Origin: a bacterium
GTDB lineage: Bacteria; Patescibacteriota; Minisyncoccia; JAHIHE01
Direction: 5' to 3'
DNA length: 64,000 nt
NCBI GenBank assembly: GCA_030693205.1
Contig: JAUYBG010000006.1
Coordinates: forward strand, 68,015 to 132,014
The translations under genes were made by a program, and so were the position numbers. Each line of letters starts with the position of its first letter. The first letter of the stretch is position 1. The notes below the pieces were generated by a model, which saw only the letters and a program-made list of their open reading frames with translations, searched no databases and was not told the DNA's origin. Below are positions 19,598 through 37,730 of this stretch, piece by piece.

Positions 19598-20173
19598 ATG
19601 ACGTCAATAACAATCAACCTTATTATCAAAAATCCGGGAAAATTACTTGCCGCTAAAAACGCATTTAGTAAATATGGAATTTTAATAAACCAAATTAATA
19701 AAGAATTCCCCGAAATTCAAGCGGACACAAGCTTGGAAATAGCTAAATATACAGCAATACAAGCTGCTAAAGAATTTAAAATGCCTATGATCAGAGAAGA
19801 CCACAGTATGTTTATAAACGCACTAGGCATTCCCGGTCCATACGCAAATTTTATAGAAAAACATCTGCCAGTTGAAAAATTATTGAAAATTCTTAAGACC
19901 CAAAAAGACAGAAGCGGCTATATGGAAGTTGCAACTGTTTTTGCTGAACCAAACGGCTTTACTTTAGAATATATGTACAAAGTACCTATTTATTTTGAAA
20001 ATAAAATTAATATTCCTGACCCGAAAAATGGCTGGAGCGGAATTATCAGACTCGCAAACGAAACAAGAACATTAACAGAATACCCTGAAGAAGAACGAGT
20101 GAATATATGGAATAAAAATTATATTTCTATCGCTGAATTCTTAATTAAAAATAAAGAAAAATATTTAAAATAA
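19598..20173 (+). CDS. Ham1/RdgB-like non-canonical purine NTP pyrophosphatase
   Basis: NPGKLLAAKNAF, EDHSM and ALGIPGPY blocks resemble the ITPase family. Confidence 0.55.
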   Translation: MTSITINLIIKNPGKLLAAKNAFSKYGILINQINKEFPEIQADTSLEIAKYTAIQAAKEFKMPMIREDHSMFINALGIPGPYANFIEKHLPVEKLLKILKTQKDRSGYMEVATVFAEPNGFTLEYMYKVPIYFENKINIPDPKNGWSGIIRLANETRTLTEYPEEERVNIWNKNYISIAEFLIKNKEKYLK

Positions 20174-20947: not shown

Positions 20948-22336
20948 TTAACTAACCTGCGCTTGCTTATAAAGATCCCAAACAAGCCATTCGAGCGTCA
21001 TTTTCGCATGTACGCAAAAGCGTTTATCGAGTGCCCAAATAGAACCCTCTTCAAGCTCTGCTTGATATGGACAGCCTCCACCACAAATACCTAAAGCAGG
21101 GCAGCTTTGACATTCCGGCATATTCAGAGGCGATCTCATACTCCATTCTCTGAAATCTTTATCATTGCTGATATTAAAGTCGTTGTCGTAGACATTTGTT
21201 GGGAAATATTTCTTTTTACCAACAAACCCATGGCAAACTCCAATATCTCCATCAGGTGCAATCACTATCTGATTGCCCCCAGTTGCTCCGCAGTCAAATG
21301 GCCAAACTGTCTTTTCGATAAAAGCATTCGCTTTTCTCATTATGCGATCTTCGTAGACGCCTCTTTTTCTAAAAACTTGAAAAGCATCAAGAATAAATTT
21401 TGCCGCTCTTTCGTTGTAACCATTATCCATTTTTCCGTCATTACTAATCAGCAGATTTAATCCTAAATTGGATATTCCGCATTCATCCAGTAAAACCCGT
21501 ATGGTAGCGTCGAAATCACGGATACTTGCCTCTGAAAGAGTGCATGACGCACCGATATTCATACCTGCTTCTTTGCAAACCTGAAAGCCTCTTTTGATGT
21601 CTTGATAAACGGGCTCTCCGCTTGCATAGATCCGGCTGGAGTTAGTTGCAAAGTCATCGCCGTCAATTGATATTGAGACCTGAACATCGTGGCTCTTAAG
21701 CATTCTGGCAATCTCGTGATTTAATAAACTTCCATTAGTCACTAGATTAAGGGTTGTTTTTTTGGGAAGCTTACCACTTTCCATGTACTTTTTAATCTTA
21801 TTTAAAAGCATCTCAAGTACTGTCCAATTCAACAAGGGCTCTCCGCCATAAAAAACAATTGTTTTTTCTAGATCAAACTGTTCAGGATCTTCTGCAATTA
21901 ATCGACAAAAGAAATCAAGTCCTTTAAAAGCTATCTCCTCTGTCATATTACCCATGGGATTATTATTTTTTACAAAACAATAACCGCAACGGAAATTACA
22001 CCTTTCTGTTAGGATGACATAGGCTAAGTGGGGATAAGGCTTGCCAAGCAAATCCATGAAATAATCAATAGCTTTTTTATCTTCTGCGGGATCCTGGATC
22101 AAAACTTTTACATTTTTAAGGGCATCAACCGCTCTTAAAAAAGTTTCTTGATCTTTTGAGCCAACAAGCGCGAGTAGGCTTTGCGAATCAGCGCCTCCCT
22201 CAAATTTCTTAATTATCGGCAGAAGCGCATCCGGAATATAAACTGGCATCATCCGAAGAGAATGATAGCAAGCTATTACAGGTTTTTGCTCAAAAAAATG
22301 AGCGTATCTTGAAAGGAAAAGGGTTGTTCTTTCCAT
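20948..22336 (-). CDS. radical SAM/SPASM peptide-modifying enzyme A with an N-terminal RRE-like domain
   Basis: CNFRCGYC (CxxxCxxC); C-terminal SPASM cysteines (CGATGGNQ...CHGF...CQSCPALGICGGGCPYQ); AGGAGG ahead of the ATG. Confidence 0.8.
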   Translation of the reverse strand: MERTTLFLSRYAHFFEQKPVIACYHSLRMMPVYIPDALLPIIKKFEGGADSQSLLALVGSKDQETFLRAVDALKNVKVLIQDPAEDKKAIDYFMDLLGKPYPHLAYVILTERCNFRCGYCFVKNNNPMGNMTEEIAFKGLDFFCRLIAEDPEQFDLEKTIVFYGGEPLLNWTVLEMLLNKIKKYMESGKLPKKTTLNLVTNGSLLNHEIARMLKSHDVQVSISIDGDDFATNSSRIYASGEPVYQDIKRGFQVCKEAGMNIGASCTLSEASIRDFDATIRVLLDECGISNLGLNLLISNDGKMDNGYNERAAKFILDAFQVFRKRGVYEDRIMRKANAFIEKTVWPFDCGATGGNQIVIAPDGDIGVCHGFVGKKKYFPTNVYDNDFNISNDKDFREWSMRSPLNMPECQSCPALGICGGGCPYQAELEEGSIWALDKRFCVHAKMTLEWLVWDLYKQAQVS

Positions 22337-22433
22337 ACATTACCTCCTTTATTTCTATATAATCTATTTTCCTTTATTCGAACAAGGAAGGAGAAACCTT
22401 TGCTTCCCCATCCCTATTCGGCCGAACAGGTTT

Positions 22434-22577
22434 TTACCATAGCGATTTATCTATGCCCTTGTTGTATCTACATGCGCACTTACACGCACATGTACCACAT
22501 TTGGCTGCATGTACAGTATTTGCAGCATTACCTAGCACCTTAGCGGCATCTACCGCTGTTGGCGAAATAACATCCAT
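22434..22577 (-). CDS. candidate precursor peptide A (47 aa, five Cys)
   Basis: Unannotated ORF MDVISPTAVDAAKVLGNAANTVHAAKCGTCACKCACRYNKGIDKSLW; AGGAGG nine nt upstream; 97 nt upstream of rSAM A. Confidence 0.55.
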   Translation of the reverse strand: MDVISPTAVDAAKVLGNAANTVHAAKCGTCACKCACRYNKGIDKSLW

Positions 22578-22595
22578 TTTTACATCCTCCTGTAT

Positions 22596-22684
22596 GTTTT
22601 AAAAGAACTCATCTGGCTAAATAGCTTCTATTTAGCCATCCTTCCTTGAGCACAACTCTAACAAATCCGGGAGTTTTGTCAATG
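22596..22684 (-). promoter_or_regulatory. conserved promoter plus 5'-UTR hairpin element, copy A
   Basis: Minus-strand TTGACA-16nt-TAGAGT, then a 10-bp-stem hairpin ggctaaatag/ctatttagcc and agatgagttcttttaaaa before the SD; copies at 29237-29322 and 31934-32019. Confidence 0.5.
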
Positions 22685-24562: not shown

Positions 24563-25984
24563 TTATGGATTAACGTTGATCTGAACTCTATCCATAATAG
24601 GACCGTAACAACCATTCTTACTAGTTATTCTTAACCACCCCTCATACTTACCAGCTGCCGCATATGTCGTCGATGTCATACCTCCAGTATATGTTACATC
24701 AAATAATGCATTACCGAGAACACCTAAAACACCAAGTAATAAATCACAATTCGTTGTTTCACTTTTTGCATAATCTGATGTCCATCCTAACCATGGGGTA
24801 GTATAATCGATCTCATATCTATCTACCCCGTTATCAAAACCCGGACCATCACTGAGAACATCGGTTTTTAAATTTGGATAAGCATAGTCCGCTGAATAAG
24901 TTCTTCCATCGAAATAAACAGTTTCACCCACTTTAACGCTTACTTGTTTTCCCATAGGCATAAAAGTTGTCCCTACCCTTAAATCCGCTTTCATACAATG
25001 ATACAACCCATCGCTTGCCCAAGACGGATTTGAACAAATATCTTTGCAGGCAAGCTTTCCCGAAACAAAAATTTTCGCCGGATGTCGCGGGTAATCGGTT
25101 GCGATGCAGGCAGGAACTCCGGTAGCGGTAAAATTTACTACATTACTGGCAATAAAAGTTGAGCTGGAATACGGATCAGTTTCCGGAAAAATCGCCTGAA
25201 GTTTTACATCATCGGCACAAAATGTAGGAAGCGTAGACAAAATAGAAAAAATACCGCTAGCGTTCGTTTGTATTTGAGTATATCTCATTCCATCAATTCC
25301 TGCCCCATCATTAATAACATATACTCTTATATTGGTGTTAACCACGGGATTACCGCTTGCATCAGTAAGCTTCCCTGCCAGAGTTACAGAAGCGCCAACA
25401 GCCGCGGATGCTCCGTCTGCGGGAGAGGTTAAAGTGATTTTAGCGGGAGCATTAGGACTGACAAAAACATCTGCTTCCATATTATCTATGCAATGGCACG
25501 GCGCATTAACTGTTCCATTTCCCAATGAACCGGGTCCATCGCACATCTCAAGCGGATCGCTTGCCGTCGGACTATAACCTACCGCACTCCACGGCATCGC
25601 CGGATTTTTAAGCACTAGAATATCGGGGTTGATCGTGTTAATAATCACCCAAGAAGAAATGGCCAGAAGAAGGCCGATAATTGCCGAATTAATCGTGTGT
25701 TTGGCATCTTCGATGGCTGAAGGATTGCCGGCGGAAGTCAGATATCTTGCGCCCCCGATGACGATCGCGCCCATCGCCACAATACCGACTACGGAAATAA
25801 GAAAAGTATAAAGCCCGGAAAGATAGACTTGAACTTTTGCGCCGGGTGGAATGCCGGGAATAGTGACCAAAGCGTTATAAGTTGTCTGAGCTAAAGCGGA
25901 ATTCGAATAAAAAAATAAGCTTAGTAAAAATATAATGCTAGCTAAAACTATTTTTTTGTTTTTGCTAAAAATTTTTAAAATCAT
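24563..25984 (-). CDS. large secreted/membrane protein with an N-terminal TrbC/VirB2-like (T4SS pilin-like) domain
   Basis: Signal peptide; YLSGLYTFLISVVGIVAMGAIVIGGARYLTSAGNPSAIEDAKHTINSAIIGLLLAISSWVI pattern typical of CPR pilin-like proteins; large extracellular C-terminus. Confidence 0.45.
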   Translation of the reverse strand: MILKIFSKNKKIVLASIIFLLSLFFYSNSALAQTTYNALVTIPGIPPGAKVQVYLSGLYTFLISVVGIVAMGAIVIGGARYLTSAGNPSAIEDAKHTINSAIIGLLLAISSWVIINTINPDILVLKNPAMPWSAVGYSPTASDPLEMCDGPGSLGNGTVNAPCHCIDNMEADVFVSPNAPAKITLTSPADGASAAVGASVTLAGKLTDASGNPVVNTNIRVYVINDGAGIDGMRYTQIQTNASGIFSILSTLPTFCADDVKLQAIFPETDPYSSSTFIASNVVNFTATGVPACIATDYPRHPAKIFVSGKLACKDICSNPSWASDGLYHCMKADLRVGTTFMPMGKQVSVKVGETVYFDGRTYSADYAYPNLKTDVLSDGPGFDNGVDRYEIDYTTPWLGWTSDYAKSETTNCDLLLGVLGVLGNALFDVTYTGGMTSTTYAAAGKYEGWLRITSKNGCYGPIMDRVQINVNP

Positions 25985-26014
25985 ATTGTTTTAAAGAAAT
26001 TATCTATACCGTTA

Positions 26015-26172
26015 TTATACAATTATTGGGGTTTTTAGACAAGCGTGAACTATATATTTTCCCAAATTTTATCTTTATCTTTATCTTCCTGCCGCACCGG
26101 CAAAATTACGGTAAAAGTCGAGCCTTTACCTTCCCCTTCCGAGATTACCTTAATTTTTCCGTGACAGTACTT
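26015..26172 (-). pseudogene. histidine kinase 3'-end fragment, copy 1
   Basis: DNA-level homology to the last ~50 codons of the HK gene at 32065-34050 (cctgccgcaccggcaaaattacggtaaaagtcgagcc...); the +strand track ORF 26026-26220 is a wrong-strand artefact. Confidence 0.5.
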
Positions 26173-26850
26173 TTATTTTTTCTTTCCAATAATAATTACT
26201 CGCCGACTATTAATATTTAATTTCTCCATATCATAATTTCCATATACTGAAGATATGAATAAGTTATTATCGTTAAACTTTCTTTTAAGTTCTGGAAAAG
26301 TATAATACCTTACTCCTTTATTACTATGATCTTTGTCTACGACAAGCTCCATCTTGGTAAAATCAAATTTATATGGAGCTTTCGGATTTTCTCTTAAATA
26401 GCCGATAACCCTAAATACATTATCGCAGTCCAGTAAAAACATTCCATTCTTTTCCATTATTTTAGTAATATTTTTCAATGTTTCGTCAGGCTCAATCATT
26501 CTAAGATCAGAAAAAAATAAGAATATTTTATTATACTTTTTTTTAAGATCTAATTTATGAATATCCTGTGTAAAAAAATTTATCTCTAAATTTTCTTGTT
26601 TGGCGTGCTTTTTGGCAACCTCGATCAAATAATCGGAAAAATCCAAACCATCAATATTATATCCTCTTTTTTTAAGCTCAATAGTATGCCGTCCGTTACC
26701 GCAAGCAACATCTAATATCTTGTCTCTCTTTTTTAATTTTAAGGATTTAATAAGAAAATCAACGTCTTTTTGCAGCTGTTCCGGGGAAAAATATTCTTTA
26801 TGCTCTTCTAGATAAGAACCTTTTGGACCATAATACCGTTTTAGACTCAT
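26173..26850 (-). CDS. class I SAM-dependent methyltransferase
   Basis: Motif I (ILDVACGNGRH) and post-I acidic residue. Confidence 0.8.
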   Translation of the reverse strand: MSLKRYYGPKGSYLEEHKEYFSPEQLQKDVDFLIKSLKLKKRDKILDVACGNGRHTIELKKRGYNIDGLDFSDYLIEVAKKHAKQENLEINFFTQDIHKLDLKKKYNKIFLFFSDLRMIEPDETLKNITKIMEKNGMFLLDCDNVFRVIGYLRENPKAPYKFDFTKMELVVDKDHSNKGVRYYTFPELKRKFNDNNLFISSVYGNYDMEKLNINSRRVIIIGKKK

Positions 26851-26864
26851 AATTTTATTTATAA

Positions 26865-27608
26865 TTATATTTTTACTCCAACAATAATCATTCTCTTGCT
26901 GTTAAAATCAAAATTCTCTCCTTCATAAGATCCATAAACTTTTTTTATCCTTAAACCATTTTCTTCTAAGATTTTTTTAATTTCTGGAAAAGAATACAGT
27001 CTTAAAATATATTCGGATTTTTTTTGTTTTCCTTTTTCTGTAATTTTTAGTTTTACATGGTCTTGGAAAGTAATTGGATTAAAAGCATGATTTTCCAAAA
27101 TATTTTTTTTACCATTTTTGTATTTAAAAACACTTTTAAAATGAGATAAAAAATAACAAATATTCCGAGTGTCAATTATAAATTTCCCTTTACGATTTAA
27201 TGATTTAGAAATATTTTCAATAATTTTTCTGTTGTCGCTATCGCTAAAATATCCGAATGAAGTAAAAAGATTAAGAATAACATCAAATCTTTTTTTAAAT
27301 AAAAACTTACAAATATCCCCATAAATAAAATCTGCTTTAACGCCTTTTTCTTTGGCAATATTTTTTCCAACTCTTAAAAAAGGTTTTGAATAATCAATGC
27401 CCACCACATTATATCCTCTTTCTGCTAATCCAATCATATGTCTGCCCCAGCCACAACATAAATCTAAAATTTTGTCTTCTTTTTTTAATCTTAAAATATT
27501 AATGATAAAATCAATTTCTTTTTTGGTTCTCTTGTCGTCAAAAAGAAAATAATAAAGCTCTAAATAATCTTTATTAAAATAGTATTTCCACCAATTATTT
27601 TTAATCAT
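26865..27608 (-). CDS. class I SAM-dependent methyltransferase, paralog of 26173-26850
   Basis: ILDLCCGWGRHMIGLAERGYNVVGIDYS. Confidence 0.8.
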   Translation of the reverse strand: MIKNNWWKYYFNKDYLELYYFLFDDKRTKKEIDFIINILRLKKEDKILDLCCGWGRHMIGLAERGYNVVGIDYSKPFLRVGKNIAKEKGVKADFIYGDICKFLFKKRFDVILNLFTSFGYFSDSDNRKIIENISKSLNRKGKFIIDTRNICYFLSHFKSVFKYKNGKKNILENHAFNPITFQDHVKLKITEKGKQKKSEYILRLYSFPEIKKILEENGLRIKKVYGSYEGENFDFNSKRMIIVGVKI

Positions 27609-27681
27609 TTTATTTTTTTATTTATTAAACCTTTGGTTTATTTTAGTATAGCATAAATAAAAATTTTATCAATATAAAAAT

Positions 27682-27707
27682 AACTGTAAAATTTGAATTT
27701 TACAGTT
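27682..27707 (-). terminator. hairpin plus T-rich tract at the stop of rSAM B
   Basis: aactgtaaaat/attttacagtt perfect inverted repeat. Confidence 0.35.
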
Positions 27708-29025
27708 ATAAACTTTTTAAATTCCAGCAAGTCTGATCGGCATGAACATCATCGCCAAATTTTGACATAGATATTCCCTTGCATCCTCCATTGCACGACA
27801 AAGAAAATTTACATACTAGACATTCTTGTACTATATCCATCGAAAACGGATTTGTTTTTTCCCAAATCGAACGGATATTATTATTCGTCAAATTTCCTAA
27901 AACCGGAAGTCGCGAATGTGGACAAGGAGTAATTTTTCCGTCGAAAGTTATATTACAAATACTTCTTCCTGCTTCACATCCTCTTATTGCTTTTATAGAT
28001 TGATCTATAAGAAAAGGAAAAAATACCAATTTCTCGTAAGAAATCATTTTGGGGTATTTTTTTTCTAACAAAACCAATGTTTCGGTCGCGATTCTGAGTT
28101 GGTCGCTTGTTAATTTAGAAAGAGAATTTGCTCTTCCTTCTTGCATACATCTAAAAGCAATAAACCAGTCTATTCCTAAATCATAAACAGCTAAAAATGT
28201 TTCTTCTATTTTATCAAAGTTTAGATTATTAACCGTCATTGCGCAGCGAACATTCATTCCCTGATTTTTAAGAATCGTAATCGCTCTAATGGCTTTTTCG
28301 TATACTCCTTTTCCTCGAATAAAATCGTGTATCGTTTCTGGACCATCAATGCTTACTTGAATTACCGATAAACCTGTTCTCGATAGTTTTGCCGCTCTTC
28401 TTTTAGTTACCAATATTCCATTGGTGCTAAGCGAAACGCTGACACCTTCTTTCGTTGCTCTTTCGATTATTTCATCAAGGCAACAGACAAGCAATGGCTC
28501 TCCGCCACCAAGACCAAGATAGAATATTCCATTATCCAATAGCTGCTTTTCTATCGCAAATATTTGCTCTGCAGATAAAGCATTTTTTGTTAAACCAGAT
28601 CCTGTATAGCAATGCTTGCATCTTAAATTACAAAGATCAGTTAATTCCCAAAAAACTATTGAAGGGAATTTTAATTTGGGAAATACAATAGGTTTATCGT
28701 CTGTATTATTGGAAAATTTTTTAGTTGATAATATTATGCGTCTATTACAGCTATCAAATAAACCAATTTCTCCAATCTGATTTACGAAAGCAATAATTGT
28801 TTCATCGTTTATATTTTTATGCCTTCTTTTTATTTCCTGAACAATGTCACTAAGACTGATTTCTCCTGTGCATAATTCTATAATTTCTATTCCAATTTTA
28901 TTTACCCGAAAACATATTTGATCAGTTTCTATGGCTAGCTCTACTGGCGGTTTAACTAATCCACCAAAATTTTCTCTGCGATGGCGTACCCCTTTTGTCA
29001 AGTGTGGCTTAAAATCTTGTTCCAT
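27706..29025 (-). CDS. radical SAM/SPASM enzyme B with an N-terminal PqqD-like RiPP recognition element
   Basis: N-terminus (VNKIGIEIIELCTGEISLSDIVQEI) is PqqD-like; CNLRCKHC; SPASM C-terminus (CLVCKFSLSCNGGCKG). Confidence 0.8.
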   Translation of the reverse strand: MEQDFKPHLTKGVRHRRENFGGLVKPPVELAIETDQICFRVNKIGIEIIELCTGEISLSDIVQEIKRRHKNINDETIIAFVNQIGEIGLFDSCNRRIILSTKKFSNNTDDKPIVFPKLKFPSIVFWELTDLCNLRCKHCYTGSGLTKNALSAEQIFAIEKQLLDNGIFYLGLGGGEPLLVCCLDEIIERATKEGVSVSLSTNGILVTKRRAAKLSRTGLSVIQVSIDGPETIHDFIRGKGVYEKAIRAITILKNQGMNVRCAMTVNNLNFDKIEETFLAVYDLGIDWFIAFRCMQEGRANSLSKLTSDQLRIATETLVLLEKKYPKMISYEKLVFFPFLIDQSIKAIRGCEAGRSICNITFDGKITPCPHSRLPVLGNLTNNNIRSIWEKTNPFSMDIVQECLVCKFSLSCNGGCKGISMSKFGDDVHADQTCWNLKSL

Positions 29026-29111
29026 TATTAACCTCCATATAATTCAATTTCTTGTCTAAATAAAATATTTGGAATTATTGCCTTTTAAAAAACAATAATT
29101 CCAAAACCCGT

Positions 29112-29219
29112 CTAATCTCCGGCATAAGTTGGGAGCATTACGCATCCTGTAGATATCCTTTCTATTACTGGACTTTCTTGCTCCGAATCTTTCTCTGTCT
29201 TAGAATTTTCTAAACCCAT
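29112..29219 (-). CDS. candidate precursor peptide B (35 aa)
   Basis: MGLENSKTEKDSEQESPVIERISTGCVMLPTYAGD; gaggaggtgaaaaaATG; hairpin ggaattattg/caataattcc between it and rSAM B. Confidence 0.5.
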   Translation of the reverse strand: MGLENSKTEKDSEQESPVIERISTGCVMLPTYAGD

Positions 29220-29236
29220 TTTTTCACCTCCTCAAA

Positions 29237-29322
29237 TTTTAAAAGAACTCATCTGGCTAAATAGTTTCTATTTAGCCATCCTTCCTTGCGTATAACCCTA
29301 GCAAATCCAGGGGTTTTGTCAA
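29237..29322 (-). promoter_or_regulatory. conserved promoter plus 5'-UTR hairpin element, copy B
   Basis: TTGACA-16nt-TAGGGT and the same hairpin, with loop tttc instead of gctt. Confidence 0.5.
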
Positions 29323-29334
29323 ATACTGACTCCC

Positions 29335-29580
29335 GCTGATTACTTATATTGGGGTTTTTAGACAAGCACGAACTATATATATTCCCAAATTTTATCTTTA
29401 TCTTCCTGCCGCACCGGCAAAATTACGGTAAAAGTCGAGCCCGCGCCTTCCCCTTCCGAGACCACCTTAATTTTTCCGCCATGCTTGGCTATGATCTGCT
29501 TGGCGATAAAAAGTCCCAGGCCGGAACCGTTCGGATTGATATAATTGGATTTTTTCCCGCGTGAAAATTTTTGAAAAATC
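29335..29580 (-). pseudogene. histidine kinase 3'-end fragment, copy 2
   Basis: ~240 bp homologous to the last ~75 codons of HK 32065-34050 (ATP-lid to C-terminus), with the stop region mutated. Confidence 0.55.
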
Positions 29581-30332
29581 TATTTTAGACCACCTTTCCA
29601 TTCCTTTTCTAATTCTTCGATCGATTTTTCGAAACCATTTTCAATAATTTTTAAATTTTCCTCGGAATTATTTAATCGCGACAATCTTTGGTAAGTTTTT
29701 TTAAACTTATCCCATCCGTAAGTATTGATTAAAAATCTGACAAAAGAGCCAACTTCCGGATAAATTATTTTAGAATCAACCTTTTCCCAATTTTTATTAT
29801 CAATTAAGTTTTTGATAGAATACAGTTTTTTCTGACTCAATAACTCTTTGGAAATTATATCAATATCCTTACCGAATAAATTTCCTTCCATAAACTGAGC
29901 TAATCCCTCGCAAAACAAATATATCGATAACCCAAGGGATAAAGACAAAAAATGAGTATCTTCATGCTCGCCGATAAACTGGCATTTATCATTATAAATC
30001 GTATGAATTTCAAATTTGTTTGTTTTTGGTTCGCTATTAACTAATTCAAAATCTCCCCAAATCACATTACCAGGGCTGTCATCGCCCATTAAAGATGCTT
30101 TGCTTTTTAAGGACGGATAAATATAATAATGAATAATTTGCTTATTTTTTAAATCAAGAAACGATAAAATTTTATTGTGATGTTTTTCTTTTAGCTTAAT
30201 AATTTTATAAATATCATTTTCAGCTAAAGAATTTTTGAGATAGTAAAAAACATAATGGTTGCTTTTTTGTTTAATCCATTTTTGCCTCAAATAATCGTTT
30301 TTATACCACGGAATTTCTTGTTTTATTTTCAT
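29580..30332 (-). CDS. HExxH-motif protein downstream of radical SAM enzyme C
   Basis: IGEHEDTHF motif; 250 aa; directly after rSAM C. Confidence 0.45.
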   Translation of the reverse strand: MKIKQEIPWYKNDYLRQKWIKQKSNHYVFYYLKNSLAENDIYKIIKLKEKHHNKILSFLDLKNKQIIHYYIYPSLKSKASLMGDDSPGNVIWGDFELVNSEPKTNKFEIHTIYNDKCQFIGEHEDTHFLSLSLGLSIYLFCEGLAQFMEGNLFGKDIDIISKELLSQKKLYSIKNLIDNKNWEKVDSKIIYPEVGSFVRFLINTYGWDKFKKTYQRLSRLNNSEENLKIIENGFEKSIEELEKEWKGGLK

Positions 30333-30406: not shown

Positions 30407-31909
30407 TTATTCAAAGTTTAATTTTACTAATCCCTTATTTATTTTTTCCACAAGTTCACGCCTGCAATATGGTTCTAATAGACTACCTATTGTTACATAG
30501 GCATCAAACCGACATCCTCCGCCACAAATAGGAACGAACGGGCAATCTTCTGAAAGACATTTATCCAGATAGCTAAAATCCATAAATTTTGCATCATCGG
30601 TATTAGCCGTTGAATCTATGTTTCCAAAAGAAAATCCATCTCTTCCTACTGTGCTTATGCATTTAAGCAATGCTCCGTCTGGCTCTATTGTAGCCGAATT
30701 TATAGCTCTCGCGGTACACCAAGGACCGACTAAATATTCTTGAGGAATTACAAATCCTCTTTTCTTTGCTTCCTTGCAAAGCCACAGATATTTATCAGCG
30801 CTCTCGCTAAAACTTAATCCAAATTCATTAAGGTAAGAGTCCGGCGCTCGCTTGCCCATATCTCCGCAAATAGTTGGAGCCACTATACCAAAAGAGAATT
30901 CTATTTTATCCTGCAGTTTATTTTCTGCCAAAAAATCAAACAGCTGCGGTATTAAATCAACATTCTGCCGGTCAAAATTGACTCTAAGGTGAATTTTTTT
31001 AACAAAACCTTGATTTATAGAACTCAAGATATTTTTTGAAATTTTATCAAATGTACCCTTGCCGTCTTTTCTGAACCTTCTTAAGTCGTGTACTTTTCCG
31101 TATCCATCAAGAGTTATCTGAACTCTATCAAGGTTGCATCCGTTTAAGAAAGAGGCAATTTCTTTATCAAAAAATTCACCATTTGTCATTATGCCGAGTT
31201 CAAGTGCTAAGTTTTTTTGCTTGGCTATCGTGTGCAGTTTTGGCAAAATAAATCTGATTGTCTTTTTATTCAATAACGGCTCGCCCCCGTACAGAACTAC
31301 TCTTAGCTTATTGCAACCAGCATGGTTACCTAGATAAGCATCACACCAATTCACTATTTCATCGGCTATTTGAATTGACATTGATTTATGTTTTTCTATT
31401 CCTCTCTCGAAACAGTAAGGGCAGGCCAGCTGGCAATTTCTAGTAAGGACAAGATATATTCCGAAAGTTTTATCATCCAATCTGGCCTTATGGAATAGCT
31501 CTTTGTATTTTAGCTTTTCGTTTAATTCCGCAGGAACGAGCATTTCCATTTTTACGAGCTCATTTATGTAATCGCCTAAATACGAACCAGTAATATTAGA
31601 TTGTCCATTGTTTGTAATTTCATCGATTTCTCTTTTTAGCCGTCCGGTTAATCTTACTGTGCTTGTAGTCAGCGTATTTCTAGCGATGATTTTATCGCTG
31701 TTTTCATATTCAATCCAAAACACAAATCGAGACCATTTCAGTTTCACATCGTTCACCTCTTTGTCATTGATATATTTTTGGGGAAGTTTTATTAAACCTC
31801 CCCCTTTGCTTATGCGGTTAATAACCGCAGCCATCTTTACCCATATCGCCGGTACGGGTTCCGGAATCAGTGCCTTTTTGGAGCACTTCAAAATCTTGGT
31901 TGCCGTCAT
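30407..31909 (-). CDS. radical SAM/SPASM enzyme C
   Basis: CQLACPYC; SPASM (CLSEDCPFVPICGGGCRFD). The track start (31909) overlaps candidate precursor C; the true start may be M26 (31834) or similar. Confidence 0.75.
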   Translation of the reverse strand: MTATKILKCSKKALIPEPVPAIWVKMAAVINRISKGGGLIKLPQKYINDKEVNDVKLKWSRFVFWIEYENSDKIIARNTLTTSTVRLTGRLKREIDEITNNGQSNITGSYLGDYINELVKMEMLVPAELNEKLKYKELFHKARLDDKTFGIYLVLTRNCQLACPYCFERGIEKHKSMSIQIADEIVNWCDAYLGNHAGCNKLRVVLYGGEPLLNKKTIRFILPKLHTIAKQKNLALELGIMTNGEFFDKEIASFLNGCNLDRVQITLDGYGKVHDLRRFRKDGKGTFDKISKNILSSINQGFVKKIHLRVNFDRQNVDLIPQLFDFLAENKLQDKIEFSFGIVAPTICGDMGKRAPDSYLNEFGLSFSESADKYLWLCKEAKKRGFVIPQEYLVGPWCTARAINSATIEPDGALLKCISTVGRDGFSFGNIDSTANTDDAKFMDFSYLDKCLSEDCPFVPICGGGCRFDAYVTIGSLLEPYCRRELVEKINKGLVKLNFE

Positions 31910-31916
31910 TGCTCAT
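31818..31916 (-). CDS. candidate precursor peptide C (32 aa)
   Basis: MSNDGNQDFEVLQKGTDSGTRTGDMGKDGCGY; the same gaggaggtgaaaaaATG context as precursor B. Confidence 0.45.
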   Translation of the reverse strand: MSNDGNQDFEVLQKGTDSGTRTGDMGKDGCGY

Positions 31917-31933
31917 TTTTTCACCTCCTCAAA

Positions 31934-32019
31934 TTTTAAAAGAACTCATCTGACTAAATAGCTTCTATTTGGTCATCCTTCCTTACAATAACCTTAACAA
32001 ATCTCAATAATTTGTCAAT
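31934..32019 (-). promoter_or_regulatory. conserved promoter plus 5'-UTR hairpin element, copy C
   Basis: TTGACA-16nt-TAAGGT; hairpin gaccaaatag/ctatttagtc (one mismatch). Confidence 0.5.
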
Positions 32020-32064
32020 CTTTAGCTTTAATGTACAAGTTATAGATTTTGCAAGTTTTATCCC

Positions 32065-34050
32065 CTATCTTCCCTGCCGCACCGGCAAAGACACGATAAA
32101 AGTCGAACCTTTGCCTTCCCCCTCCGAGATTACTTTGATTTTTCCGTGATGCTTAGCTATGATCTGCTTGGCGATAAAAAGTCCCAGGCCGGAACCGTTC
32201 GGATTGATATAATTGGATTTTTTCCCGCGGGAAAATTTCTGAAAAAGAATTTTTTTATCATCCCCGCTCAAGCCTATGCCCGTATCAGTAAAATAAATAT
32301 TCACGTTATCTTTCTCCCGCTTAACTTCAATAATCAATCCGCCTTTTTCGGTATATTTTTCTGCGTTATCTATTAAGTTCATAAAAACATTGTGAAGAAG
32401 CTTTTCGTCAGCTTCGATCTTCGGAATCTTCTGGGAAGATCTTTTGTATTTCAAATATAAATTCTTTTTTTTGAAATTAAGATTAAGCATTTCGATATTT
32501 TCCTGAAGCATCTTCCGTATATCAATTGGCTGAAAATTCAATTTTAACTCCCCTTCGCTTTCCGTCGCTGTCACCATATCGTTGACGATATTGTTAAGAC
32601 GCTCTGTATTATCCACGATTCTCGCTTTTACTTCCAACTTTTTTTCCGGAGTAGCTTTGTCAAAATCCTTGGCATTCCACATTGAAATAAATCCCCGCAT
32701 TACAGTCAAGGGAGTCCTAAGCTGGTGAGAGACGATATGTAAAAAATCACTCTTCACATCCAATGCGTTTTTAAGCTTGTCTTTGGCTATAGTAAGCTCT
32801 TCGATATTTTTATTCAAATTTTGATAAAATTGAAGGTTATCCATAACTACGCTTACATGCTGGGTAAAAGCATTGATTAGATCTAAATCTCTCGGGCTGA
32901 CTTCCGTAATTTCTTTGGTAAAAATAAAAATCAAAGCTCCTTTTTTCTCGCCTCTGATTGTCATTGGAACCGATGCGAATGTTTTTCCGCCAAGTTTCTC
33001 TTGTATCAATAGGGACGTGGGCTTATCCAACGGCGGACAAATAAAATCCGCTATGTTCGACCCTTTTTCAATTTCGTTATTGAGAATACTTTTGATAACC
33101 AGACCGCAATTTTTAGAATTTTTGCTATCAACAATCAAGCTGTAATCGCTTAATTCAGGCTTAGATAATAAACACCTTGCTTGCCTCATTTTATCTGATT
33201 CTGTGGTAATATAAGCGCAAGCTTTTCCACTATCTTCATCGTAGCGAATTAAAAATGTTCCCATAATACCAAGATGCCCGAGTTTTGCCGGCACAGCATC
33301 CATAATATTCTGCACGCTTTTTTCAATTTCCACTCCCAAAGAAACCATTTTGTTTAAAGACAGAAGGGATTCCAAATCCTGCGTTTTTTCCTCAAGATTT
33401 TTTAATTGATTTCTAATTTGTTCGTATTGACGAATATTATTGATTGCAATAGCCACTTGATCAGAAAAAGTTTTAAGCATTTCCTGCTCTTCTTGAGAAA
33501 ATTCTTTTCTGGTTGAGGTAAAGAATACTACTCCCAAAATTTTGTCTAAAAATATAACAGGAAGAGAAATACAAAGATTCATGCCCATAAATTTCTGCAT
33601 AGTATCAGCCAATGATGCATTTACAGCGGGACTGATAAATTCACTCATATGTGCCCCTACATGAATTTTTCTTGTAAGGTAAGTTTGTACGGTTAAATTA
33701 TCATCAAGATTTAATGGGTAAGTGTGTTCTTTGAATGGCTTATTCAGCCATCCGACAACTTTTTGGCCTAAATATGATTGCGTATAAGACCAAGGTATAA
33801 GTTGCTTATTAATTTCGTCAGGTAAAAACAACACTCCTCCTATGAAATCCATCTCTTCAACCATAACGTTCACCATCTTTTGGGTCAATGCTTCATAATC
33901 TTTGATAGTAACAAGCATAGAGAATATTTTCTGCAAAGTCTTGTAGCGCATCTCTTTTGAGGTTGGTTTTTCTACAAGTCTACCTTTAAATCTATCGGTA
34001 TCAATGTTTGGGAAGATAAGCTTTCTTATTATACCTTGGATTAAGTTCAT
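32065..34050 (-). CDS. cytoplasmic sensor histidine kinase (GAF-GAF-HisKA-HATPase)
   Basis: H-box HQLRTPL; N, G1, G2 boxes (NLIDNAEKYT, DTGIGLS, GSGLGLFIAKQII); no TM segments. Confidence 0.85.
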   Translation of the reverse strand: MNLIQGIIRKLIFPNIDTDRFKGRLVEKPTSKEMRYKTLQKIFSMLVTIKDYEALTQKMVNVMVEEMDFIGGVLFLPDEINKQLIPWSYTQSYLGQKVVGWLNKPFKEHTYPLNLDDNLTVQTYLTRKIHVGAHMSEFISPAVNASLADTMQKFMGMNLCISLPVIFLDKILGVVFFTSTRKEFSQEEQEMLKTFSDQVAIAINNIRQYEQIRNQLKNLEEKTQDLESLLSLNKMVSLGVEIEKSVQNIMDAVPAKLGHLGIMGTFLIRYDEDSGKACAYITTESDKMRQARCLLSKPELSDYSLIVDSKNSKNCGLVIKSILNNEIEKGSNIADFICPPLDKPTSLLIQEKLGGKTFASVPMTIRGEKKGALIFIFTKEITEVSPRDLDLINAFTQHVSVVMDNLQFYQNLNKNIEELTIAKDKLKNALDVKSDFLHIVSHQLRTPLTVMRGFISMWNAKDFDKATPEKKLEVKARIVDNTERLNNIVNDMVTATESEGELKLNFQPIDIRKMLQENIEMLNLNFKKKNLYLKYKRSSQKIPKIEADEKLLHNVFMNLIDNAEKYTEKGGLIIEVKREKDNVNIYFTDTGIGLSGDDKKILFQKFSRGKKSNYINPNGSGLGLFIAKQIIAKHHGKIKVISEGEGKGSTFIVSLPVRQGR

Positions 34051-35087: not shown

Positions 35088-35303
35088 CTAAATAAACCCA
35101 CCTTGTTTTCCCACTTTCTCATACTCCTTCACCCATTTTTGCAACTCCGCCGGCAATTTCACGTTTTTAACTTCCTCAATTTCTTTTTCGATCCTCTTTG
35201 GGGTCAATTCTCTTAATATTCCGCAAACTACCGGATATTTTCTCTGCTCCGCCTTGGTAAAACCGTAATAATTAAGAAGCGATTGTGTTTTTTCTTTAGC
35301 CAT
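35088..35303 (-). CDS. small hypothetical protein (71 aa)
   Basis: Start at [15 protein letters not shown]; a truncated paralog lies at 37325-37447. Confidence 0.4.
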
Positions 35304-35389
35304 TTTAAAAAAATTATTAATTAAGTTCTCTTTTTCCTCCCTTGGTAAGCCGTAGCCTTGGCGCAAGGTGACTATCCTGCAAATTTTAA

Positions 35390-37185: not shown

Positions 37186-37324
37186 AAATGTGAATATTTT
37201 TAATTAATAAAAAACTTTAGTTTTGATCATATCCTAAAATAAACCCTGATGACATACGGTTAATTTTACAACATATTTTTTATTTCAGTTAAAAACTTTA
37301 ATTTTAATTTTTAACTTCCTCGAT

Positions 37325-37447
37325 TTATTTTTCAATCCTTCCCGGAATTAATTCCCCCAGAATTCCCGCCACCACCGGATATTTTTTCTGCTCCATTGCT
37401 GTAAAACCATAATAACCGAGAAGCGATTCTGTTTTTTCTTTAGCCAT
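37325..37447 (-). pseudogene. truncated duplicate of the 35088-35303 gene
   Basis: MAKEKTESLLGYYGFTAMEQKKYPVVAGILGELIPGRIEK then stop; flanking DNA also conserved. Confidence 0.4.
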
Positions 37448-37730
37448 TTTAAAAAAAATATTAATTAAACTTTTTTCTCATTTTTAATTTCCTTTTCTCG
37501 AACTTCTTTATTAACTTTATCAACATTCTGTAAAATTTTATCGTCCATTATAAATTTTTTACAAATTAATCCTTTGATTTTCATTTTTTAGATTATACCA
37601 TATTTTGCCAAAATAAACAAAATACCCGTATAACATTAACCAAAAACGGGAATATAGAATGAATTTATACGGAAATAAAAAACTCCAAGAGCAATTCCTG
37701 GATTTTTTATAAATTTAACAATTGTGAGCG

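Follow-up and report, generated by a model that had tools for sequence, protein, structure and literature searches.

Islands and prophages that sit at the 3' ends of tRNA or protein genes carry a duplicated 3' end as attL/attR, and multi-operon bacteriocin loci such as streptococcal blp place one shared promoter/operator before each operon. The orphan cdiA-CT, rhs-CT, and type VI secretion system (T6SS) effector-immunity arrays are proposed to form by sequential displacement, in which incoming DNA is anchored by the conserved part of a gene and the old 3' end is pushed downstream (PMC6336857, PMC5361080). Here, we describe a locus from a single metagenome-assembled genome (MAG) of an uncultured member of the Patescibacteria, in which two 5'-truncated copies of the 3' end of a histidine kinase (HK) gene separate peptide-biosynthesis cassettes that are unrelated to each other. 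The locus lies in a window of 64 kb (positions 1 to 64,000 of the analyzed stretch of JAUYBG010000006.1). We propose that it was probably built by serial insertion at the HK 3' end, with the older tails displaced downstream. The minus strand carries every gene from 20 to 37 kb, and the features of the HK locus are, in gene direction, as follows.

32065-34050, minus strand: intact HK gene, 661 amino acids (aa), GAF-GAF-HisKA-HATPase_c (Pfam and open reading frame [ORF])
32073-32246, minus strand: last 174 nucleotides (nt) of the HK, the template region found again in the fragments
32020-32064, minus strand: spacer A, 45 nt behind the intact HK, which in alignments resembles the spacer of the relative L002 (GGGGATAAAACTTGCAAAATCTATAA...)
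31917-32019, minus strand: leader A, with a TTGACA-16-TAAGGT promoter-like site, hairpin GACCAAATAG/CTATTTAGTC, and ribosome-binding site (RBS) GAGGAGGTGAAAAAATG
31818-31916, minus strand: short ORF A, 32 aa (MSNDGNQDFEVLQKGTDSGTRTGDMGKDGCGY), a putative precursor
30407-31909, minus strand: radical S-adenosylmethionine (rSAM) gene of cassette A, a 500-aa ORF (NCBI: 494 aa, SPASM domain-containing)
29580-30332, minus strand: last gene of cassette A, 250 aa, Peptidase_MA_2-like (Pfam), with an HEDTH motif
29488-29578, minus strand: 5' segment of HK fragment 1, 91 nt, beginning at the stop codon of the 250-aa gene (joint J_A, GGTCTAAAATAGATTTTTCAAAAATT)
29347-29487, minus strand: 3' segment of HK fragment 1 and spacer up to CCCCAATA, including the pilin-promoter -35 element TTGTCT
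29323-29346, minus strand: 24-nt linker (TAAGTAATCAGCGGGAGTCAGTAT) from the fragment-1 spacer to leader B
29220-29322, minus strand: leader B, with TTGACA-16-TAGGGT, hairpin GGCTAAATAG/CTATTTAGCC, and RBS
29112-29219, minus strand: short ORF B, 35 aa (...PVIERISTGCVMLPTYAGD), a putative precursor
29105-29068, minus strand: 17-bp hairpin after short ORF B
26173-29025, minus strand: body of cassette B, an rSAM-SPASM gene and two class-I methyltransferase genes
27706-29025, minus strand: rSAM-SPASM gene of cassette B, with a PqqD-like N terminus
26865-27608 and 26173-26850, minus strand: methyltransferase genes of cassette B, the second being MT2
26024-26163, minus strand: HK fragment 2, the last ~26 HK codons and spacer, ~10 nt past the MT2 stop codon (joint J_B, AAAATAAAAGTACTGTCACGGAAAAATT)
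26014-26042, minus strand: native pilin promoter TTGTCT-17-TATAAT (promoter scan; conserved in the relatives L001 and L002)
24563-25984, minus strand: gene with a T4SS_pilin domain (Pfam), 473 aa

The original prediction that HK 3'-end fragments are present was borne out when the HK 3' end was compared with the whole window by blastn (E=5e-82 and 5e-25). The stronger alignment pairs 32246 to 31914 with 29578 to 29217 (78% identity over 364 columns, E=5e-82); its HK-coding stretch (32246-32073 versus 29578-29405) is 90% identical and ungapped, and the match continues past the spacer and the leader to the ATG of the short ORF. Fragment 2 (26161 to 26024) is 89% identical to fragment 1 over 138 nt, including a 6-nt insertion/deletion (indel; E=2e-48), and 82% identical to the intact HK (E=5e-25). 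Beyond these two, no HK-tail copy was found in the 64 kb by DNA blastn or by a six-frame protein search. The fragments measure 232 nt (29347-29578) and ~138 nt (26024-26163), lie on the minus strand like the HK, and are 5' truncated and nested, the 5' ~1.75 to 1.9 kb of the gene being absent and the truncations falling at codon ~602 (fragment 1) and codon ~635 (fragment 2). Their HK-coding homology covers the last ~57 and ~26 codons of the gene, instead of the ~75 and ~50 first estimated; the remainder is the spacer that follows the HK. As had been predicted, they mark cassette junctions: fragment 1 lies between cassettes A and B and starts at the last stop codon of cassette A, and fragment 2 lies between cassette B and the pilin gene, ~10 nt past the MT2 stop. 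An apparent extension of fragment 1 by ~130 nt into the 250-aa gene (tblastn; protein P=0.002 post hoc, DNA P=0.34) was rejected as chance because ~250-aa homologues of other organisms align through that C terminus, and fragment 1 therefore begins at the stop codon.

It was also correctly predicted that the fragments are closer to each other than to the intact gene. Over the 74 coding nt shared by all three copies, fragments 1 and 2 agree at 68/74 positions, fragment 1 and the HK at 61/74, and fragment 2 and the HK at 65/74; the spacers of the fragments are 95% identical over 58 nt, the intact-gene spacer departing by indels, and the 3' segment of fragment 1 is 92 to 95% identical to fragment 2. 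A 1-nt deletion (GGG to GG) common to both fragments has abolished the original stop (QGR-stop), so that they read on to ...LPVRQEDKDK(DK)IWE(Y/N)I-stop, with 68 and 37 in-frame codons and no internal stops. Both fragments share the frame of the stop codon of the preceding gene (29579-29581, GGLK-stop-IFQKF...; 26173-26175, GKKK-stop-KYCHGKIK...), a coincidence with a chance of ~1/9; there was no indication of stop-codon reassignment at these junctions.

The HK is a member of a Patescibacteria family. In two relatives, L001 and L002, the pilin gene directly follows the HK gene, in keeping with the suggestion that a single-copy ancestral state might be found in related genomes, and the genes for ribosomal protein L21 and RecR are adjacent. 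Amino acid identities of these relatives to the window are 63 to 69% for the HK, 84 to 87% for L21, 90% for RecR, and 86% for DnaB. The spacer between HK and pilin in these relatives, with its TTGTCT-17-TGTATAAT promoter, can be aligned with what follows fragment 2; therefore, fragment 2, the spacer, and the pilin gene make up the original junction, and cassettes A and B lie inside it. The comparison shows what we take as the ancestral state: the HK, a spacer with the pilin promoter, and the pilin. The -35 element and the spacer of the pilin promoter fall within the duplicated segment, and the pilin gene retains its promoter via fragment 2. Fragment 1 has the promoter -35 element and the spacer up to CCCCAATA, followed by a break into the linker and leader B; apart from the shared CCCCAATA, the 24-nt linker has no recognizable homology to the native spacer/pilin -10 region. 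Spacer A retains CTTGTAC, which resembles the pilin-promoter -35 element, and the TTGACA of leader A occupies the position of the relatives' pilin -10 element (TTGTATAAT). A search of the HK protein against GTDB representative genomes confirmed no relative, and an exact look-up found the HK not on record.

The original prediction had spoken of duplicated cassettes and of tandem duplication or recombination of a whole unit. Recombination is upheld and duplication is not, since the HK tail, the spacer, and the ~105-nt leader are all that cassettes A and B have in common. The rSAM proteins of cassettes A, B, and C (C being a further cassette of the window, described below) are 23 to 29% identical, the cassette bodies have no DNA similarity, and the tailoring genes differ, one encoding a Peptidase_MA_2-like protein in A and two encoding methyltransferases in B that are 34% identical to each other. 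In situ tandem duplication of an HK tail-promoter-precursor-rSAM-tailoring unit, with later divergence or cassette replacement, would account for the contiguous homology upstream of A and B (HK tail, spacer, leader, and RBS; 330 to 360 nt) and for the likeness of the precursor A leader peptide to the B-type precursor of contig L007, and it naturally yields a joint between a unit end and an internal HK position. We nevertheless regard it as a poor explanation. The locus has two different joints, about -232 and -138 nt from the end of tail plus spacer, and not one; the flanks are 78 to 95% identical and thus far better conserved than the coding cargo, the reverse of expectation; the HK-pilin site is empty in the relatives; the tails diverged under purifying selection, with outgroup-like states in the fragments; and J_A recurs in another lineage, where it adjoins a cassette-A gene only.

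An intact gene with alternating islands and 3' fragments behind it is a pattern typical of tandem islands at gene 3' ends; here, integrase-mediated islands would target the HK 3' end and leave the fragments as attR-type repeats. This explanation is largely refuted, and we give it hardly any credence. No integrase, transposase, or other recombinase was found by Pfam in the cassettes or among 40 of the ~43 larger ORFs of the window, the surroundings consisting of core genes, and the same ORFs contain no response regulator. Moreover, J_A and J_B truncate the HK at different positions and have no common core, which argues against site-specific integration, and cassette C is inserted elsewhere without a repeat.

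As the source is a MAG, strain variants with different cassettes could have been chained through repeats, or segments misjoined. Exact repeats of 74 nt (29488-29561 = 32156-32229), ~49 nt, and 30 nt link the segments, and contigs in Logan (SRR13727537, a different assembler) break exactly there. Such an artefact is very unlikely in light of those same contigs, which are 100% identical to the window and may derive from the same reads as the MAG. L009 (31943 to 29532) crosses the joint between the 250-aa stop and the HK tail and L008 (29246 to 26095) that between the MT2 stop and the HK tail, both with fragment-specific bases; each contig covers its own joint and ends exactly at the start of exact repeats of >30 nt. 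In addition, J_A occurs in an independent sample (L092), the three HK tails are all distinct by single-nucleotide polymorphisms and indels, so that nothing has collapsed, the window contains no N, and the 74-nt repeat is shorter than typical reads. Each joint is thus seen in a second assembly, the linkage across the 74-nt repeat resting on the MAG assembly, and the feature is confirmed as real.

The tails themselves record more than decay. Between the intact tail and fragment 1, the proportion of synonymous differences (pS) is 0.249 and that of nonsynonymous differences (pN) 0.063 (ratio ~0.25), and the intact tail differs from fragment 2 by about 6 synonymous and 3 nonsynonymous changes. Fragments 1 and 2 differ from each other in a roughly neutral manner. 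At several sites, the fragments have the state of the L001/L002 outgroup and the intact tail the derived one. The mainly synonymous differences and the outgroup-like states therefore indicate that the tails diverged as working alleles in different lineages, and the pS/pN pattern that at least two working HK alleles contributed. The original prediction of decayed copies with mutated stops holds insofar as the shared 1-nt deletion displaced the stop codon, and fails insofar as the copies did not decay in situ from the present gene; judged from the alignments, only the fragment-specific changes appear decay-like. Fragment 1 is also a mosaic relative to the intact HK, with 2 differences in 91 nt followed by 16 in 83 coding nt (maximum chi-square permutation P=0.011).

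Contig L092 (Logan SRR22388171, another metagenome) encodes a 69% homologue of the 250-aa gene, followed by an HK-tail fragment that starts from the same nucleotide after the stop codon; the joint J_A therefore predates this genome. An internal deletion has removed residues ~50 to 162 of the homologue, and the HEDTH motif with them. In the L092 fragment, the GAKS codons of the family consensus stand where fragment 1 of the window and the resident HK both have GKKS, and the 5' part of fragment 1 was therefore homogenized with the resident gene after the joint had formed. The L092 fragment is 82 to 86% identical to all HK lineages, with no single lineage assignable. In L091, a terminator and a further leader-like region come after a 73% homologue of the 250-aa protein, and no HK tail is present there. 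The HK-tail fragment of L092 is also interrupted, at 813-917, by 106 nt of inserted AT-rich DNA that is bounded by imperfect 13-nt terminal inverted repeats (CCCCGTTATTAAT ... ATTAGTAATGGGG) and looks like a miniature inverted-repeat transposable element.

These data bear on whether the fragments could be functional, as small proteins, antisense or regulatory RNAs, terminators, or insulators between operons. Both have an uninterrupted HK reading frame, which the preceding stop codon shares, and fragment 2 holds a weak terminator-like hairpin (26130-26110) and the pilin-promoter -35 element. We hold such functions to be highly improbable: the HK frame lacks both a start codon and an RBS, Rfam gave no match, the differences between the fragments are roughly neutral, the L092 copy is broken by the 106-nt insertion, and an obvious role exists for the spacer/promoter part only. 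The fragments are HK 3'-end pseudogene pieces, that is, nonfunctional scars.

The serial insertion that we favor would have proceeded as follows. Segments consisting of an HK 3' end, spacer, leader, precursor, rSAM gene, and tailoring genes would have been imported from related strains by recombination at the HK 3' end, with HK homology as the anchor, as the architecture and the shared old joint suggest. Each incoming segment would bring a complete new HK tail, keeping the kinase intact and pushing the resident tail downstream as a 5'-truncated pseudogene, and two rounds would yield the order HK, cassette A, fragment 1, cassette B, fragment 2, pilin. The joints between a cassette end and an internal HK position presumably formed by illegitimate joining, at least that of cassette A in an ancestor or donor; afterwards, a cassette and the HK-tail sequence on its sides could be passed on by descent or transferred by ordinary homologous recombination. 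Since J_A pre-exists elsewhere, the last step here may have been plain homologous recombination through HK sequence at either end or the integration of a circle by one crossover. Later, the first 91 nt of fragment 1 would have been homogenized with the resident HK by homologous exchange or gene conversion, and the fragments, as direct repeats, would permit RecA-type loop-out of a cassette that leaves the HK intact.

The circle deserves separate consideration. Small circles carrying HK-tail homology, spacer, leader, and cassette, such as might be excised from a similar array of a different cell, could have integrated in Campbell fashion by a single crossover in the HK tail. Each cassette does lie between direct repeats, with 91 nt at 98% identity around the A tail and cassette A (unit of 2,668 nt) and 138 nt at ~94% (89% in gapped blastn) around cassette B (~3.2 kb); J_A pre-existed and is shared with L092, as a circle junction would be, and a recombinase would be unnecessary. 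A single crossover, however, predicts donor/host hybrid copies of uniform divergence, and the observed identity is 98% and then ~81%; nor was a circular form or replication function seen. We consider this route unlikely, though with one genome it is not distinguishable from the serial insertion outlined above.

Several observations weigh against serial insertion. To explain the mosaic of fragment 1, one more event must be assumed (either gene conversion or crossing over at about 29487), and the breakpoint falls no more than ~7 nt from the site that corresponds to the 5' end of fragment 2. The cassettes end 0 to 10 nt past a stop codon, which is tighter than random illegitimate joining suggests. 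No donor genome with an HK-leader-cassette arrangement was found, and another HK-tail array occurred in 0/90 related loci, four double matches being tandem full-length HK genes. It is still strictly conceivable that the relatives, which are distant at the HK (63 to 69% aa), lost cassettes through recombination between repeats and that nothing was gained here. Finally, with one genome, the possible orders of events are inseparable, as are the candidate routes: illegitimate recombination facilitated by homology, a double homologous crossover that used a pre-existing joint, and a circular intermediate.

A more speculative proposal, which we think is rather doubtful, is that the HK-tail pieces are not scars alone and act as working handles of a recombinase-free cassette system. 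If so, a RiPP (peptide synthesized by the ribosome and modified posttranslationally) cassette bracketed by a full HK tail on the left and a truncated one on the right could insert by homology into the HK of any Patescibacteria relative upon uptake of the DNA, each time restoring the kinase, and could loop out through the direct repeats, and the shared leader would put newcomers under the same control. The occurrence of J_A in a second lineage and the homogenization of the fragment with the resident gene are predictions of this model.

We then considered the cassettes and the remaining features of the region, which are as follows.

35000-34047, minus strand: 317-aa gene directly before the HK in gene direction
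23098-22781, minus strand: ribosomal protein L21 gene
20165-22682, minus strand: cassette C (for comparison), from leader C through a 233-aa gene
22578-22682, minus strand: leader C
22434-22577, minus strand: 47-aa Cys-rich ORF of cassette C
20948-22336, minus strand: rSAM-SPASM gene of cassette C, accompanied by the 233-aa gene

The GC content is 24 to 34% in the cassettes, ~35% in the HK gene, and 40 to 48% in the DnaB, RecR, and pilin genes. The cassettes are thus AT-richer than the core genes around them, which favors serial insertion of acquired DNA. Pfam identified Radical_SAM and SPASM in B and C, weak PqqD in B, and Radical_SAM only in A. Behind each leader, at a fixed distance, is a short ORF: MSNDGNQDFEVLQKGTDSGTRTGDMGKDGCGY in A, MGLENSKTEKDSEQESPVIERISTGCVMLPTYAGD in B, and the 47-aa ORF with a CGTCACKCAC motif in C. 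ORF A overlaps the mechanically called start of the cassette A rSAM gene (500 versus 494 aa in NCBI). With a short precursor ORF beside an rSAM protein that has SPASM and/or a PqqD-like RiPP recognition element, the cassettes are predicted to be of the rSAM/SPASM RiPP type. A concatenated query of five cassette proteins gave no matches in a protein search. Between precursor ORF and rSAM gene, strong hairpins and T-rich tracts occur at 29068-29105 and 22390-22409 (minus strand), a layout that would fit partial termination and a predicted excess of precursor transcript.

The leader of ~105 nt is common to these three unrelated rSAM cassettes and comprises TTGACA-16-TA(A/G)(A/G)GT, AAGGAAGGATG, a hairpin or palindrome of 10 to 11 bp, CAGATGAGTTCTTTTAAA, and a strong RBS; the hairpin of copy A has one compensatory G-C to A-T change. 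The leader pattern GGAAGGATGNNNAAATAGNNNCTATTTNNNCAGATGAG had no exact match in GTDB representative genomes or JGI metagenomes, and Rfam returned no family in 20 to 35 kb. L007 is an orthologue of cassette B (rSAM 81% aa) with an identical core peptide and the same RBS; its promoter is different and its hairpin, at the same place, is 20 bp. The L007 precursor (224-349; MDSEKSLEFEVLREGTDSEQENPVIERISTGCVMLPTYAGT) joins an A-like leader peptide to a B core, from which we place a recombination breakpoint inside precursor B near 29190. The three leaders of the window resemble each other more than leader B resembles that of L007, which suggests that they are a common regulatory element homogenized within this genome, a second sign of intragenomic homogenization.

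Cassette C sits between the L21 and RecR genes, which are adjacent in L001. An HK-tail/spacer remnant upstream of leader C was detected at chance level only (P=0.37 to 0.81), and there is no L21-tail scar at the far end of the cassette; the leader therefore travels independently of the HK tail. A Ham1-family gene (19598-20173, plus strand) lies between RecR and cassette C. L001 lacks it between L21 and RecR, so it may have come in together with cassette C or on its own.

In other members of the HK family, the 3' flank varies. It holds a block of dCMP-deaminase, DegT, methyltransferase, and glycosyltransferase genes in L003, a polyprenyl synthase gene in L004, and an Eco57I/DpnII-like restriction-modification pair in L005, L006, and L012; the gene upstream of the HK is more constant and is terpene-synthase-like in L005 and L006. 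The HK 3' flank may be an insertion hot spot, and tail scars were not seen in L003, L004, L005, L006, or L012. A 55-nt exact HK-end repeat in L006 (3360-3569), tried as a second case, was rejected: it flanks 100 N and is an unmerged contig overlap, that is, a scaffolding artefact. A contig from a sister genome, L010 (GCA_041643235.1, JBGGGZ010011447.1), matches the 317-aa gene at 95% and the first 114 HK codons at 89%, and breaks off short of the HK tail. The window has a further direct repeat upstream of the HK locus (35164-35324 versus 37308-37468; 161 nt, 80% identity, 2.1 kb apart); this repeat overlaps a 92-aa ORF (35088-35366) and a 40-aa ORF.

The locus offers a step-by-step record of how recombination with relatives would have supplied accessory operons for peptide biosynthesis to an ultra-small genome of the candidate phyla radiation (CPR) that shows no evident mobile-element machinery at this site. 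Both the HK-tail repeats and the leader common to the cassettes can serve as markers for finding more cassettes. For annotators and assemblers, they also advise caution, the locus being bounded by repeats and probably polymorphic in the population.

Among known systems, islands at gene 3' ends share with this locus a replacement 3' end that leaves the target intact, a displaced fragment that marks the far end, and, in tandem arrays, repeated fragments; they differ in that here there is no integrase and no constant crossover core, the truncations are 232 versus 138 nt, and the cassettes are only 2.6 to 3.2 kb. The pseudogenes at tandem-duplication junctions have the same kind of joint, between a unit end and an internal position of the upstream gene, whereas our units are not homologous over their full length, the two joints are distinct, and the alleles diverged under selection. 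The likeness to blp concerns the leaders only: three peptide cassettes, each with a near-identical ~105-nt promoter, palindrome/hairpin, and RBS, lie near a sensor kinase. In contrast to blp, the window yielded no response regulator, pheromone, or transporter, and control by the HK is hypothetical. Conserved promoters of this kind could double as recombination substrates.

The closest counterparts are the cdiA-CT/cdiI, rhs-CT, and T6SS arrays, in which an intact gene is followed by 5'-truncated 3'-end remnants in the same orientation (PMC6336857, PMC5361080, PMC3150448). As in those arrays, the remnants are separated by acquired nonhomologous DNA, with the newest presumably beside the intact gene; the conserved part of the gene would be the homology anchor, and the remnants retain sufficient homology for recombination with the upstream gene; and relatives have the unoccupied site or an intermediate (L001 and L002 being empty and L092 having joint A alone). 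Unlike in those arrays, the displaced end is a conserved catalytic HATPase_c tail instead of the polymorphic tip of a toxin, the cargo forms an operon of its own farther downstream (RiPP-type precursor, rSAM, and tailoring genes) under a separate promoter, immunity genes are lacking, and the host belongs to the Patescibacteria (CPR). Thus, the architecture is one already known from toxin loci and not a new type of machine: the HK locus works like the sequential-displacement family without being a toxin/immunity member, and with it the architecture reaches beyond polymorphic-toxin loci to a regulatory gene whose cargo is biosynthetic.

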